A DNA stretch of 64,000 nucleotides from Promethearchaeota archaeon (GCA_048941285.1 JBHLNS010000008.1:30009-94008); one strand, 5' to 3'; shown: positions 11,273 to 16,666, numbered from the stretch's first letter. The notes: generated by a model not told the origin, from the letters alone. Program-made: numbers and translations.

Positions 11273-13939
11273 TTGAGTGTTAACTTAAGGAATTTCTTTA
11301 TAGTATTTGATAGAAATCGTGAACATAAGAAAGATCTGTTATTTAATGTTAATTTCTTTTATTTAAAATCATTTAAGAAAAAGAAATTTGCATTTTCTTA
11401 CATAAAAGAACCATTTTTCAAGGGAACGGTAATTTTTGGGCCAGATTTTAAAAATAGAATACGTCCTCTAAATTTTAGTAAAATTGAGAAAGAAGGAAGT
11501 TCACAACCAATTAACCCGAGATTACTTAAAAAGTTCATTTTATCAGACAAAAATAAATTTATTGCTTTTTCGAGTCAAACTTCTTCTCAAGATGTTTCAC
11601 CTATCAAAGAAATGCTACAGAATTTTCAATATGATACAGATAAGATTATTAATTTAACCTTATGTAATTCATGTATGGAAAAGAACACCTTTACATTATT
11701 AAATGAAAATCTTCAAATTAAATCCTACAAAGATCAAATTATTTGTTCTGATTGTGCTTATGAGACTGTTTTAAATAGAATCAAGCTAGCAGGGCTTATT
11801 TCTCAAGAGAAAGTCAGTCCTAAATTAAAGAACTTTTTAATGCACTTAATACTCAAATTTAGGGATATTAGGAAGGTATTGGAAGCATTTAAAGCAGATT
11901 TCAATCCCGTTCGATCTCCTGAGATAACTCTTTATGATATTGAAAAAACTCCTCTAATAAGTAAAAAATTTCTTAATCAAGCAATAGAAGGTCTAGATAT
12001 TCCTTTATCTTTTAAAGATATATTGAAAGGATTAAAACTAATTAATTTACTGCCAATCCAAGCAATTTCTATCGAACAAGGCTTATTAACAAGACGAAAC
12101 AATCAATTAATTATGGCTCCTACCAGTGGAGGTAAAACATTAATAGGAGAATTAGCTGGAATTTCAAGGGTTTTAAATGAAAAAACCAAAAAGATGTTAT
12201 ATTTAGTACCAATTGTTGCTTTAGCTAATATTAGAACTGAAGAGTTTAAAGAAAAATATAAATCAATTAAACTGAAAGTTATCAAAAGAGTTGGAGAATC
12301 ATTATTTGAGAAAAAAGAAGATGATGACATTAAAGATTTAGCGAATTCACATATTATTATTGCAACATATGAAGCAATTGATTACATATTAAGAAGTGGG
12401 AATAAAGATCTATTAGGAAAAATTGGCACAATCGTAATTGATGAAATTCAAACATTAATTGATCCAGATAGAGGATTTATATTAGATGGTTTAATCGCTA
12501 GGTTAAAAACTCAATACCAATCTCAATTTCTATATTTAAGCGCAACATTAGGAGAACCAGAGTTTTTGGCGAAAAAATTGAATTGTGATCTAATAAAATA
12601 TAATGATCGTCCTGTTCCAGTTGAGCGTCATTTATTACTTTGTTTGAATGAAGCCCAGAAACTAAAATTTATCTCATTATTAATGAAAAGTTCTTATTCA
12701 AAGAAATCTAAATACGGGTTCAAAGGTCAATCAATAGTTTTTACAAATACTCGAAAAAAGTGTGAATCGATAACATCCTATTTGCAATTAAAAAGCCTTA
12801 ATGTGGCAGCTTATCATTCAGGTTTAACAAATGATGAAAGAAAAATTATTGAAGATGAATTTCAATCGCAGAAGTTGGCAGGAGTAGTAGCTACCGCAGC
12901 ATTAGCAGCAGGGGTTGATCTTCCAGCTAGGCAAGTAATATTTGAATCTTTAGCAATGGGGATAAATTGGTTAACAGTTGCAGAATTTGAACAGATGCTT
13001 GGACGAAGTGGTAGATTAAAAAAACATGAAAAGGGTTTAGCTTATATCTTAGTAGAACCTGGAAAGATATATTCACCTAAAATGAAAAATACTGAAGAAA
13101 ATATAGCTATAAAATTATTAAATGGAAGAATCAAAGATTATGAGCTAATACCTAATGAGGATAGATCTCAGACTGAAATTTTAGCATATATTTCTATGTA
13201 TAATGAGTGGATTCCAAAAAAAATGGTATTTAATTTTTATAATCATCTAATAAATGAACATTTTAATTTAGAGGAAGTTTTAAAGAAATTAATATCTCTT
13301 AATTTAGTTCGAATAAAGGAAGATCTGACAGTTAAAACAACGCGATTAGGAAGAGCAATTGCTAATTCATTTTTAAGTGTTGATGATAGTCTTATAATCA
13401 TTGAGAAATTACAAAGTAAATCAAAAACTCCTTTAGATATTGCTTTAGATATAGAATCTTTAAGAAATGTATACATATCAAAAAATATTGTTGCGGATTT
13501 ATCAAAAAATGTAAATATGAAATATTTTTCAAATAATCTCTTTAGTGCTAGTGTTTTATCTCTAATGAATGCGGAATATGTAAAAAAGAGAAAATCATTT
13601 TCCCGTGATTTTATTGATTTTATAATGAAATTAACTAATGATATATTCAATTGCAATTGTAAAGATAATCCATATTGCGATTGTGGGCGTTTAAATTTAG
13701 AAAAGCTAATCCTTGACTTAAGGATCACCCATAACATGACTATTGAAGAGATTTCTAATTATTTATTAGAAGAATATAAAATCATGGTTTTTAAAGGGGA
13801 TCTTATTGATTATTTAGAGAGTTTAATCTATAGTTTGGAAAGCATTAAAAACATCGCAGAAGGTATATCTAATTTAGATGAAGATTTCAATAACGAAATT
13901 AAAGAAATTCCTAACTTGATTGAGAGCATTAAATATTAA
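11273..13939 (+). CDS. Archaeal superfamily-2 DEAD/DEAH-box helicase with N-terminal zinc-ribbon region
   Basis: Motif I MAPTSGGKT, motif II VIDEIQ, motif III LSATL, AAGVDLPARQVIF, motif VI QMLGRSGR. N-terminal CNSC...CSDC and a C-terminal Cys cluster CNCKDNPYCDCG. The predicted start is TTG and there is no ATG in the first ~110 codons, so the start is uncertain. Confidence 0.8.
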   Translation: MSVNLRNFFIVFDRNREHKKDLLFNVNFFYLKSFKKKKFAFSYIKEPFFKGTVIFGPDFKNRIRPLNFSKIEKEGSSQPINPRLLKKFILSDKNKFIAFSSQTSSQDVSPIKEMLQNFQYDTDKIINLTLCNSCMEKNTFTLLNENLQIKSYKDQIICSDCAYETVLNRIKLAGLISQEKVSPKLKNFLMHLILKFRDIRKVLEAFKADFNPVRSPEITLYDIEKTPLISKKFLNQAIEGLDIPLSFKDILKGLKLINLLPIQAISIEQGLLTRRNNQLIMAPTSGGKTLIGELAGISRVLNEKTKKMLYLVPIVALANIRTEEFKEKYKSIKLKVIKRVGESLFEKKEDDDIKDLANSHIIIATYEAIDYILRSGNKDLLGKIGTIVIDEIQTLIDPDRGFILDGLIARLKTQYQSQFLYLSATLGEPEFLAKKLNCDLIKYNDRPVPVERHLLLCLNEAQKLKFISLLMKSSYSKKSKYGFKGQSIVFTNTRKKCESITSYLQLKSLNVAAYHSGLTNDERKIIEDEFQSQKLAGVVATAALAAGVDLPARQVIFESLAMGINWLTVAEFEQMLGRSGRLKKHEKGLAYILVEPGKIYSPKMKNTEENIAIKLLNGRIKDYELIPNEDRSQTEILAYISMYNEWIPKKMVFNFYNHLINEHFNLEEVLKKLISLNLVRIKEDLTVKTTRLGRAIANSFLSVDDSLIIIEKLQSKSKTPLDIALDIESLRNVYISKNIVADLSKNVNMKYFSNNLFSASVLSLMNAEYVKKRKSFSRDFIDFIMKLTNDIFNCNCKDNPYCDCGRLNLEKLILDLRITHNMTIEEISNYLLEEYKIMVFKGDLIDYLESLIYSLESIKNIAEGISNLDEDFNNEIKEIPNLIESIKY

Positions 13940-15129
13940 GTTATATGTATTTCTACAATATCATAATCTTTTAGTGCATAATCTAATCCAACTTTTTTGC
14001 GTTTTTGCCTTACTCCTTCACGTATTACAATTGCATGTTCAAAGTTCTCAAAGAAGCTTCTATGAATCTTTTCAGCAACTTCTTTTACGGTTACACCCTG
14101 TTCCATTAGGAGAGGTTGATCAGCCACTCTTCCACTGCTCATAGTAAATATTCTAATTTTTTTTAGAAATTTTATGATTATCTCACCAAAATCTTTTGGG
14201 AAATTCTCTTTTTCAAAGCTTGTACCAAGAATTATTGGAAATCTATTTGAATATGTTGTTTTTAACATCTCAAAAGTCTCTTGAGTGTGTGGAAGATCTC
14301 CTTTAGTTCCTAATATAATTACTTTTTTATAAACAATAGAAGGAGTAAGAACATCAATAAGATTATTTATATTAATTTTTCCATATATTTTTACAATTCC
14401 ATTACGAATTCCATTTTCTTTCACAATTTCTTTTATATCTTCTGTTAGCTTATCCAATTCCTCAATTTGTTTTGCTTCCTTAGTCATATATAAAACCTGA
14501 ATTTTATTTGCTCCAGTTTTTTCAATAGAAAGAGGGGGAGGGGGTATATTAATTCGAATGTCAGCTCTAGTTAACTCATTTAATAATAAATCCATCTGTT
14601 CTTTAACATTTCGAGATAAGTCTATACAAAAGCATAGTAGATCTGCTGCTCTAAGTTGTGAAAGAATTTCTTTTCCATTACCAATTCCTTCAGAAGCTCC
14701 TTCCATAATTGAGGGCATATCAACAATTTGAAATCTAATTTTTTGATATTTATAAATTCCAATTTCTGGGAGAGGGGTAAACCTACCAATTTTTTCGTTT
14801 GCAGCACCTGTTAAATAATTCAAAAGAGTAGTTTTCCCTACTCCTGGAGTATAATAACTGCTAACTAATATTATTTGAAGTCCTTCCTTTTTTATTGAAA
14901 AAGGACTAACAATCTTCTGGGTACTTTTCTGCTTTATTCTACGTTCCTCTACTTCACGTTTCATCTTTGCTAAACGGGATTTATTTAGAGCAACGATTTT
15001 TTCAGTAGCTTTATGCTTAGGTACTAGAGACAGAAATTCTTCTAATTTCTTGATTTTTTCTTCTGTTGAATTAGCATCAAGATATTCTTGATATTTTGTT
15101 TTTGCAGCAGTTGGTAAATTTGAGCTCAA
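13936..15129 (-). CDS. DRG/Rbg-family (Obg-like) GTPase with C-terminal TGS domain
   Basis: P-loop YTPGVGKTTLLNYLTG, DMPSIMEGASEGIGNGKEIL (DRG-type switch II), IRINIPPPPLSIEKTG, GTKGDL (G4), and a C-terminal TGS-like segment VGLDYALKDYDIVEIHI. TTG start. Confidence 0.8.
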   Translation of the reverse strand: MSSNLPTAAKTKYQEYLDANSTEEKIKKLEEFLSLVPKHKATEKIVALNKSRLAKMKREVEERRIKQKSTQKIVSPFSIKKEGLQIILVSSYYTPGVGKTTLLNYLTGAANEKIGRFTPLPEIGIYKYQKIRFQIVDMPSIMEGASEGIGNGKEILSQLRAADLLCFCIDLSRNVKEQMDLLLNELTRADIRINIPPPPLSIEKTGANKIQVLYMTKEAKQIEELDKLTEDIKEIVKENGIRNGIVKIYGKININNLIDVLTPSIVYKKVIILGTKGDLPHTQETFEMLKTTYSNRFPIILGTSFEKENFPKDFGEIIIKFLKKIRIFTMSSGRVADQPLLMEQGVTVKEVAEKIHRSFFENFEHAIVIREGVRQKRKKVGLDYALKDYDIVEIHIT

Positions 15130-15151
15130 GACAAAACACTTAGCTATTAAG

Positions 15152-15607
15152 TTAAAATAAAGAACGAAATCTATCTTCTGTTTTTAATTTTAAATCTCCT
15201 AATACTTCATTTATTCGGGTTTCAAATTCTTTGAAATATTTAGGTTTTTTTGAGAATATATCATTAAGAGGATAGCGATTCAGGAAATAGGTAATGATTT
15301 GATTTAACTGGCGTTTAACAACTGACGAATCTGTGGCTTTTTCTATAATAGCATATGACAATAAAGGTTGTTTATTATTTTCATCTTCGGTAGGTAAATT
15401 AACCATCTCACAGTAACATACTAATTTAAAGGACGCAAGGGAGATTACGTTTATATCATCACCGAAAACTTCACTAGTAAAACTTTCTAGTGCTGTTAAA
15501 AATCCTGCACGCAAGTTTGGGTCTAAGACATCATCTGAGGAAGAGTAATATTTGATTTCAACTAAGTTTCTCATGCCTAAATTTATTCCTACTTCAAGAA
15601 CAGCCAT
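15152..15607 (-). CDS. Stand-alone longin-like domain protein
   Basis: 151 aa. The predicted order is beta-beta-alpha-beta-beta-beta-alpha, with the motif DPNLRAGFLTALESFTSEVFG. The same motif recurs in ORFs 34334-35638 and 56743-61422. It sits 22 nt upstream of the DRG GTPase on the same strand. Confidence 0.55.
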   Translation of the reverse strand: MAVLEVGINLGMRNLVEIKYYSSSDDVLDPNLRAGFLTALESFTSEVFGDDINVISLASFKLVCYCEMVNLPTEDENNKQPLLSYAIIEKATDSSVVKRQLNQIITYFLNRYPLNDIFSKKPKYFKEFETRINEVLGDLKLKTEDRFRSLF

Positions 15608-15802
15608 TTTAAAAAAGAATGTCTATATTCTAAAATGTAATTTATTATAATTTTTTATTTCTATTTTTTTTTAAAAACTTTATTTAATATAATTTTAATT
15701 ATTTTTAAAAGGATAAAAGAGCTCATTGAAAATTTTTTTTTGGATTATCCTATTATAACTGATAAATAATGTTGTGATTTAAATGATTAGCTTATAGAAA
15801 AA

Positions 15803-16666
15803 TCAAATAGACTCCATCTGTTTTTTATAAAGAAAAAACGTGTTCTCACAAAGCATCGCAACGGTCATAGGACCTATACCTCCTGGAACAGGTGTAATTT
15901 TTCCGCACTTTTCAAAAACATCTTCAAAATCGATATCACCATATAATTTACCTGCAACTCTATTGATACTGACATCAACAAGAATGGCTCCATCTTTAAT
16001 TTTTTCTTTAGTTATGAAATTTGGTTTTCCAACGGCGACTATTAATATATCTGCTTTTTGGATATAATTGTTGATATTCTTCGTGGAAGTGTGACATATT
16101 GTAACGGTGGCATTTCTTTTCAACAACATAAAAATTAAAGGTTTGCCAACTAAATTTGAACGATTAATAATGACTACATCTTTACCTTTCAACTCTATAT
16201 TATTATTTTCTAATAATGAAATGATACCTTTTGGTGTGCAAGGTGCATGTTCTTCATTATAATCAAATAGTTTTCCTCTTGTAATAGGATTTAAACCATC
16301 TGCATCTTTTATTGGCAAGATTTTCTCTAAAAATTCAGGTGTATAATCTTTTAGATGTTCTGGAAGAGGTATTTGCAATAAAATTCCGTGAATATTTGTA
16401 TTTTTATTAAGCTTATCAATATCTTCTAAAAGTTCCTCCTTTGAAATTTGCTCATCTAACTCAATAATCATGGAATCAATGCCTACACTTTCACATGTTC
16501 TTTTTTTAATGTTAACATAGACTTTAGATGCAGGATCTTTCCCTACAATTATAGTAGCTAGTTTTGGTCTAATACCGGTTTTTTCAACTGCCTTTTTAAT
16601 TTGTTTTTTTAATTCTAAATTTAATTGTTCTGCTAATTTCGTTCCATCCAATATTTTATTATTCAT
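15803..16666 (-). CDS. folD: Bifunctional methylenetetrahydrofolate dehydrogenase / methenyl-THF cyclohydrolase
   Basis: GKDPASKVYVNIKKRTCESVGI, INRSNLVGKPL, and PVPGGIGPMTVAMLCENT at the C-terminus. Confidence 0.9.
   Translation of the reverse strand: MNNKILDGTKLAEQLNLELKKQIKKAVEKTGIRPKLATIIVGKDPASKVYVNIKKRTCESVGIDSMIIELDEQISKEELLEDIDKLNKNTNIHGILLQIPLPEHLKDYTPEFLEKILPIKDADGLNPITRGKLFDYNEEHAPCTPKGIISLLENNNIELKGKDVVIINRSNLVGKPLIFMLLKRNATVTICHTSTKNINNYIQKADILIVAVGKPNFITKEKIKDGAILVDVSINRVAGKLYGDIDFEDVFEKCGKITPVPGGIGPMTVAMLCENTFFLYKKQMESI

Follow-up and report, generated by a model that had tools for sequence, protein, structure and literature searches.

A longin-fold protein gene conserved next to a remodeled DRG GTPase gene across an archaeal order: a candidate DRG accessory protein

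A stretch of 64,000 nucleotides (nt) from the genome of a Promethearchaeota archaeon (GCA_048941285.1, JBHLNS010000008.1:30009-94008; hereafter, the window) encodes a stand-alone protein with a predicted longin fold immediately upstream of a GTPase of the DRG/Rbg type. The pairing of these two genes across an archaeal order is real and the fold itself is ordinary; the longin protein is a plausible candidate for an accessory protein of the DRG. That it is a functional partner of this GTPase is a reading drawn from gene order, which we adopt tentatively. The first-pass annotation of this DNA had described an open reading frame (ORF) of 151 amino acids (aa) that ends 22 nt ahead of the start of a DRG gene on the same strand, and the coordinates of the pair agree with this description:

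15152-15607, minus strand: gene for the stand-alone longin-fold protein, 151 aa; an ORF from a Lokiarchaeial orthologous group without a Pfam family
15130-15151, minus strand: spacer of 22 nt between the longin stop codon and the DRG start codon, read from the sequence
13936-15129, minus strand: gene for the DRG/Rbg-type GTPase (here denoted type A), 397 aa, TTG start codon; assigned by Pfam, alignment with Rbg1 and Rbg2, and phylogenetic tree

The family that includes the source genome (f1) and its sister family (f2) belong to the same order, and the adjacency of the pair is confined to that order. For f1, we surveyed 80 loci taken from species-representative genomes. An ortholog of the longin gene (60-93% identical) is present in 74 of these loci, and the remaining 6 contain a paralog, at approximately 60-66% identity, without a DRG. 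The DRG gene is located directly downstream, on the same strand, in 73 of the 74 orthologous loci, the last one being cut by the contig end. With this recurrence and the 651 homologs of the small protein (see below), the arrangement is no accidental juxtaposition of ORFs. The sample of 301 Asgard genomes includes 68 further members of f1; the longin profile finds a match in each of these, and the DRG in 66; f1 genomes that carry both orthologs on one contig always have them as neighbors. Both orthologs are absent in three f1 genomes, one of which, G083 (100% complete), has only a second form of DRG, type B (see below). Family f32 also lacks both genes, and such joint absences are in keeping with a link between the two. 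In f2, whose proteins match those of the window at about 40% identity for the DRG and about 36% for the longin, the two genes are adjacent in 6 of the 9 genomes (G089, G210, G285, G307, G312, and the fragmentary G282), including two genomes assembled as single contigs, G210 (~4.4 Mb) and G312 (~6.0 Mb).

The surroundings of the pair are different in the two families. In f1, the pair is flanked by folD upstream and by a convergent helicase gene downstream; in f2, the upstream genes encode PHP and metallo-beta-lactamase proteins, and downstream there is a gene for either a Ras-like GTPase or another longin, the latter convergent. The folD gene was found upstream in f1 and not in f2 or the other Asgard families. 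The adjacency in related genomes, which the first-pass annotation had made a condition of its proposal, accordingly holds in the gene-neighborhood comparison, in f2 despite the different flanks. The spacer, measured at 37 orthologous loci, ranges from 18 to 117 nt with a median of 22 nt, and 25 of the DRG genes at these loci start with TTG; both the spacing and the mostly TTG start codon fit co-transcription of the two genes. We argue for a functional link chiefly because the pair, and only the pair, survived when all its surroundings changed between f1 and f2. This selective survival and the short, constant spacing are at odds with the explanation that the adjacency is merely inherited gene order, under which the longin would act elsewhere, for example, on Ras/Arf/Rag-like GTPases or as a general adaptor, and would only share a transcript with the DRG. 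We regard this explanation as possible, if somewhat doubtful; the observations that favor it are considered below. Two arrangements seen in f2 deserve mention in their own right: in one genus, a Ras/Rab-like small GTPase gene directly follows the DRG gene (L093:2291-2869, L094:2269-2874, L145:1215-1844), and in another locus type, also from a single genus, the DRG gene faces a convergent gene for an additional, divergent longin on its downstream side, giving the order longin-DRG-longin (L095:1602-2039; G307:C1:857969-858412).

The 151-aa protein has no matches in Pfam or NCBIfam. A search of a collection of 5.8 billion proteins retrieved 651 homologs, and the 120 top-ranking ones share 81% identity or more with the query; nearly all are labeled Promethearchaeota/Lokiarchaeia or are unlabeled. 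An exhaustive search of representatives at 50% identity produced 88 related clusters, 46 of them with E ≤ 1e-10. The AlphaFold2 model, built on 60 diverse relatives, has a mean predicted local distance difference test (pLDDT) score of 82.3 and a predicted template modeling (pTM) score of 0.80, and DSSP assigns to it strands at residues 3-10 and 13-19, a helix at 30-46, strands at 53-57, 60-70, and 79-89, and a helix at 94-111, followed by helices up to residue 150. The resulting topology, E-E-H-E-E-E-H with additional C-terminal helices and no helix before the first strand, reproduces the order of elements that the first-pass annotation had predicted, and the motif that it had singled out, DPNLRAGFLTALESFTSEVFG, occupies residues 29-49 of the ORF.

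The top 16 Foldseek matches of this model in the PDB are all of the longin type (VAMP7, the N-termini of AP sigma and mu, zeta-COP, Nprl, Ykt6, and a Loki Rag-like protein). In VIA-align, a structural aligner that is independent of Foldseek and reports Z scores, roadblock proteins (MglC, 9.3; MP1/p14, 7.5-7.9) score lower than longins (VAMP7, 14.5; synbindin, 14.1; Sec22, 13.3; sedlin, 11.6; AP sigma, 11.6; Ykt6, 11.5; SRX, 9.5-9.9). At the sequence level, 9 of the 60 relatives show weak Pfam matches, 5 to Longin (best E-value, 4.7e-4) and 4 to Fuz_longin_1 (best, 5.2e-5), and Fuz_longin_1 is found in 56% of the members of one neighbor cluster in the Atlas. No match of the 151-aa protein to Robl_LC7 was detected in the Pfam search, and the model opens with two strands, unlike roadblock domains, which start with a helix. 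The model thus identifies the protein as a stand-alone longin fold rather than a roadblock, in accord with the longin-like assignment made from the sequence at first pass. The best-conserved parts of the protein are helix 1 (LDPNLRAGFL.ALESFTSEVFGD) and the C-terminal region, where the tail GDLKLKTEDRFRS[IL]F, modeled with low confidence, is retained even in orthologs that are only 36% identical overall. The longin gene evolves the slowest among the four neighboring genes.

The 397-aa GTPase contains the Pfam domains MMR_HSR1 (residues 95-186), MMR_HSR1_Xtn (222-292), and TGS (325-395), and its residues 19-394 align with residues 8-373 of yeast Rbg1 (PDB 4a9a, E = 9.5e-34); it aligns with Rbg2 as well. 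All elements of the DRG architecture are present, namely, the N-terminal helical region, the G domain with an inserted domain of the S5D2L type, and the C-terminal TGS domain. This is the one DRG-like match in the source genome, which is 94% complete. In a tree of 52 sequences, the type-A DRGs of f1 and f2 form a fully supported clade nested within the Asgard-wide DRG clade, a placement that points to vertical descent of type A from the Asgard-wide DRG. The domains, the alignment, and the tree confirm that the neighbor of the longin gene encodes a TGS-containing, translation-class GTPase of the DRG family, as originally annotated. Another DRG form, type B, shares just 30% identity with type A and is much closer to yeast Rbg1/2 (E = 1e-72), and a long branch separates the two in the tree. 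Type B was detected in 24 of the 61 f1 genomes and 12 of the 14 f2 genomes sampled (for example, L137:1393-2631 in G174; also L133, L134, and L135) and was not found in the source genome of the window.

The nucleotide-binding motifs of type A are unusual. G1 reads YYTPGVGKT, with the first glycine lost and two residues inserted; G3 is DMPS, with serine in place of the glycine, and G4 is TKGD, with threonine in place of the asparagine, such that the protein deviates from the canonical DRG motifs GxxxxGK[ST], DxxG, and NKxD. Most of the Asgard DRGs have G3 of the form D/E-x-P-A/S and the TKGD motif, as in type A, yet keep GxxxxGKS; the loss of the first P-loop glycine along with an insertion of 2-5 residues occurs only in f1 and f2. 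The appearance of the pair coincides with this change in the DRG, and the identity of the pair-bearing clade with the remodeled-P-loop clade is a third observation that counts against mere inheritance of gene order. The three altered motifs could be taken to indicate that the type-A DRG is a pseudo-GTPase, a scaffold that binds nucleotide and does not hydrolyze it, in which case the longin would be irrelevant to the nucleotide cycle. This seems very unlikely given that GK[ST], the G3 aspartate, and the KxD of G4 are invariant across 42 type-A orthologs, that nearly all Asgard DRGs have the G3 and G4 changes, also where the P-loop is canonical, and that type A is the only DRG in the source genome.

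Under the accessory-partner reading, the longin gene would be co-transcribed with the vertically inherited, remodeled DRG gene of this lineage, and the longin protein would bind the DRG as an accessory subunit. It could then affect nucleotide binding, GTP hydrolysis, stability, or ribosome association of the DRG, and its role would be analogous, not homologous, to those of the DFRP partners of eukaryotic DRGs or of the longin and roadblock platforms of small GTPases. A complex prediction from the longin and DRG alignments gave a score of 0.00 against a mark of 0.32, which, by the rule of the tool, speaks neither for nor against binding.

Several observations weigh against the longin being a dedicated partner of the DRG. 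Three f2 genomes, G094, G162, and G234 (76-91% complete), keep a well-conserved longin and have no type-A DRG; in G094, the DRG gene appears to have been cleanly deleted, and the longin gene directly precedes a Ras-like gene. In the related family f31, 9 kb separates the longin and DRG genes, and the two are on opposite strands. No longin-DRG fusion was found among the longer proteins or in the representative search. None of the longin paralogs in the source genome, including the more distant ones, is encoded beside a GTPase gene, and the closest of these, at 60% identity (L006:1492-1953 on contig C19, with the same stretch also on C97), arose, according to the tree, by recent duplication within the DRG-linked clade and adjoins a gene for a 241-aa multi-pass membrane protein. 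In a mirror-tree comparison of 41 loci, the longin-DRG correlation was 0.89, with a partial correlation of 0.44, and the DRG-helicase partial correlation was 0.53; the longin-DRG distance correlation being no higher than that between DRG and helicase, the mirror-tree is non-discriminating. Furthermore, the pair-bearing genomes are all related, so that the counts given above are not independent events, and adjacent genes can be expected to be lost together irrespective of what they do.

The same data bear on inherited gene order as the explanation of the adjacency. It gains from the persistence of the longin under clear constraint in the three genomes without a type-A DRG and from the varied neighbors of the longin paralogs and distant homologs, which encode membrane proteins, VWA, B12-binding, and Ras-like proteins. 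Moreover, Loki genomes are reported to encode dozens of longin domains, and GTPase genes reportedly do not, as a rule, share operons with them (PMC10933270). Of the regulator-GTPase module envisaged in the first-pass annotation, the longin fold, the translation-class GTPase, and the conserved adjacency stand; the module itself is argued from gene order, with the DRG-less longins in three genomes, the paralogs away from GTPase genes, and the restriction to one order counting against it.

The position occupied by the longin gene is filled differently elsewhere. Among 34 DRG loci from other Asgard families (L096-L129), the gene upstream of the DRG is never a longin. In the sampled loci of five families, it encodes a HemK/PrmC-like methyltransferase with the NPPY motif, and in two families, a TrmY-like RNA methyltransferase (Methyltrn_RNA_2). 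The methyltransferase is found elsewhere in the source genome of the window, so the longin gene took its position in the common ancestor of f1 and f2. The presence of a methyltransferase gene upstream of the DRG in other lineages, with no known mechanistic link between the two, is one more argument for regarding adjacency to the DRG as inherited gene order. The methyltransferase-DRG adjacency outside the order is itself a conserved association of translation-related genes. An ORF of about 280 aa upstream of the methyltransferase gene in other Asgard families was considered as a possible folD and rejected, as no folD match was detected near the DRG outside f1.

Outside the order, the nearest relatives of the longin are found in families f3, f29, f14, and f21; those in f14 and f21 also precede genes for multi-pass membrane proteins. 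In rare fusions, all in metagenomic proteins, the longin module is N-terminal: it is joined to TPR and PRTase-CE in P0122 (683 aa), the sole match among the longer proteins, and, in two proteins from the representative search, to a C-terminal TIR domain (P0125, 445 aa) and to a TFIIB-type zinc ribbon (P0188, 219 aa). Domain combinations of this kind are characteristic of sensor-effector or conflict systems. The source genome also encodes a 250-aa protein (L010:1474-2226, contig C87) whose N-terminal half matches the longin family at 28% identity; the C-terminal half looks roadblock-like by eye and receives no support from Pfam.

The window is AT-rich, with a G+C content of 27-33%, and carries an actin-family gene among other Asgard hallmarks. 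The pair is flanked in it by the following features:

11273-13939, plus strand: gene for an RNA helicase of the ASH-Ski2/Eta type, 888 aa; assigned by Pfam and a match to PDB 7ujb
15608-15802, minus strand: AT-rich intergenic region of 195 nt upstream of the longin gene, read from the sequence
15803-16666, minus strand: folD (methylene-tetrahydrofolate dehydrogenase/cyclohydrolase), the same-strand upstream neighbor; assigned by Pfam THF_DHG_CYH and THF_DHG_CYH_C

The helicase gene is convergent on the DRG gene, and the ends of the two overlap by 4 nt at the DRG stop codon (13936-13939). The putative promoter region of the longin-DRG transcript is likely to be the intergenic region at 15608-15802 because the 22-nt spacer leaves no comparable room in front of the DRG gene.

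The helicase combines a cysteine-rich zinc-finger N-terminus with the Pfam domains DEAD, Helicase_C, and DUF5814, and its match to PDB 7ujb (E = 3.5e-130), identified as Eta (PMC9371683), places it in the ASH-Ski2/Eta family. No helicase match was found near the DRG outside f1. A helicase of the same family (E about 1e-150) is, however, encoded directly upstream of a longin homolog in f29, where a cluster on one strand comprises the ASH-Ski2/Eta helicase, the longin homolog, a 125-aa protein, an EF1A paralog, and a PHP protein. We observed this cluster in eight genomes, all from one genus (L151:218-6231; L152, L155, L157, and L168-L171). The f29 EF1A paralog is 38-41% identical to the EF1A of the window's genome, and a second copy, at 48-50%, is encoded elsewhere in the f29 genomes; the 125-aa protein has no match in the genome of the window. 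The f29 cluster recalls the eukaryotic pairing of Ski2 with Hbs1/Ski7. The PHP neighbors in f2 and f29 were considered as evidence of an ancestral cluster and dismissed, the two PHP proteins having no significant similarity to each other.

These arrangements raise the prospect that the pair belongs to a wider RNA or translation surveillance unit centered on the ASH-Ski2/Eta helicase plus a GTPase of the translation class (the DRG in Lokiarchaeales, the EF1A paralog in f29), with the longin possibly contacting the helicase or the ribosome and not the DRG. The helicase family does lie within one gene of a longin in two distant families, f1 and f29. ASH-Ski2 is present in most Asgard genomes (38 of 42 in one survey), and its euryarchaeal partner, aRNase J, is absent there, leaving the Asgard partners open; the survey does not mention GTPases or gene context (PMC10946056). 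However, the f29 examples all come from one genus, f2 keeps the pair with no helicase nearby, no relationship is detectable between the PHP proteins of f2 and f29, and in f1, the helicase gene is convergent and hence not co-transcribed with the pair, which together make this wider unit quite unlikely. A more specific version, in which the longin family would supply dedicated accessory subunits to Asgard translation-class GTPases (DRG in Lokiarchaeales, the EF1A paralog elsewhere) and would act alongside ASH-Ski2/Eta in a ribosome- or mRNA-surveillance module, we consider unlikely.

A different combination of this general kind occurs on another contig of the same genome (L003:1162-3055, contig C52), where the gene for a 472-aa GTPase of the aSelB/EF-Tu type (GTP_EFTU, D2, aSelB_III) is followed, 4 nt on, by the gene for a 156-aa Roadblock/LC7 protein, the other case in this genome of a platform-fold protein encoded beside a translation-class GTPase. 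Such recurrences suggest a link between longin or roadblock proteins and translation-class GTPases in Asgard archaea, each case being a shallow sample.

In eukaryotic trafficking and nutrient signaling, longin and roadblock domains form the platforms on which Ras-superfamily GTPases are regulated, and the abundance of these domains in Asgard archaea has been used to argue for pre-eukaryotic regulation of membrane trafficking. Should the longin be an accessory partner of the DRG, the longin platform would also have been recruited to the translation apparatus, via a ribosome-type GTPase, and archaeal DRGs would gain a candidate partner. The surveillance-module reading, if true, would extend the principle of the GTPase platform from Ras-superfamily switches to ribosome-associated GTPases, with an origin before eukaryotes. 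If the adjacency only reflects historical gene order, the protein is one more of the many Lokiarchaeial longins. Our literature search found no paper linking a longin to a DRG in Asgard or other archaea. New here are the taxonomic limits of the pair, the displacement of the methyltransferase gene, the co-occurrence of the pair with P-loop remodeling, the type-B paralog, the genomes with the longin and no DRG, and the f29 cluster of helicase, longin, and EF1A paralog.

Eukaryotic DRGs have a small dedicated partner that stabilizes or regulates the DRG; to our knowledge, archaeal DRGs are without DFRP partners. The pair described here resembles the DRG-DFRP systems (Rbg1-Tma46, Rbg2-Gir2, DRG1-DFRP1) in the full DRG architecture and the end-to-end alignment of the GTPase with Rbg1/Rbg2. 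It differs from them in that the small protein has a predicted longin fold and no DFRP domain (PF16543), that the partnership is suggested here by gene order, and that the G1, G3, and G4 motifs of the GTPase are altered. A search of the window's genome for DFRP_C gave no match, although the control genomes gave none either.

The small-GTPase platforms, TRAPP Bet5/Trs23-Ypt1, Mon1-Ccz1-Ypt7, SRX-SRbeta, MglB-MglA, and Ragulator-Rag, are similar on the side of the small protein, which has the same fold as their longin subunits (Z scores of 14.1 for synbindin, 11.6 for sedlin, 9.5-9.9 for SRX, and 8.4-9.2 for Mon1/Ccz1), and the longin-DRG gene pair recalls operons of the MglB-MglA type. Unlike in these platforms, the neighboring GTPase is a TRAFAC translation-class DRG, not a member of the Ras superfamily. 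The closest structural matches are the longin domains of R-SNAREs (VAMP7, 14.5; Sec22b, 13.3; Ykt6, 11.5; root-mean-square deviation of 2.6-3.6 Å over 118-131 residues), but the protein has neither the SNARE motif nor a membrane anchor and ends instead in the conserved, low-confidence tail. Many longin domains have already been predicted in Loki genomes (PMC10933270), and the Asgard longin proteins of solved structure, the Lokiarchaeota Roadblock-Longin protein (8yqg, Z = 9.6) and LokiRagM (9m28, Z = 8.4; also 8zla), come from the same lineage and share the fold. Unlike them, the longin of the window has no fused GTPase, belongs to an orthologous group for which Pfam has no family, and is linked specifically to a DRG by gene order.

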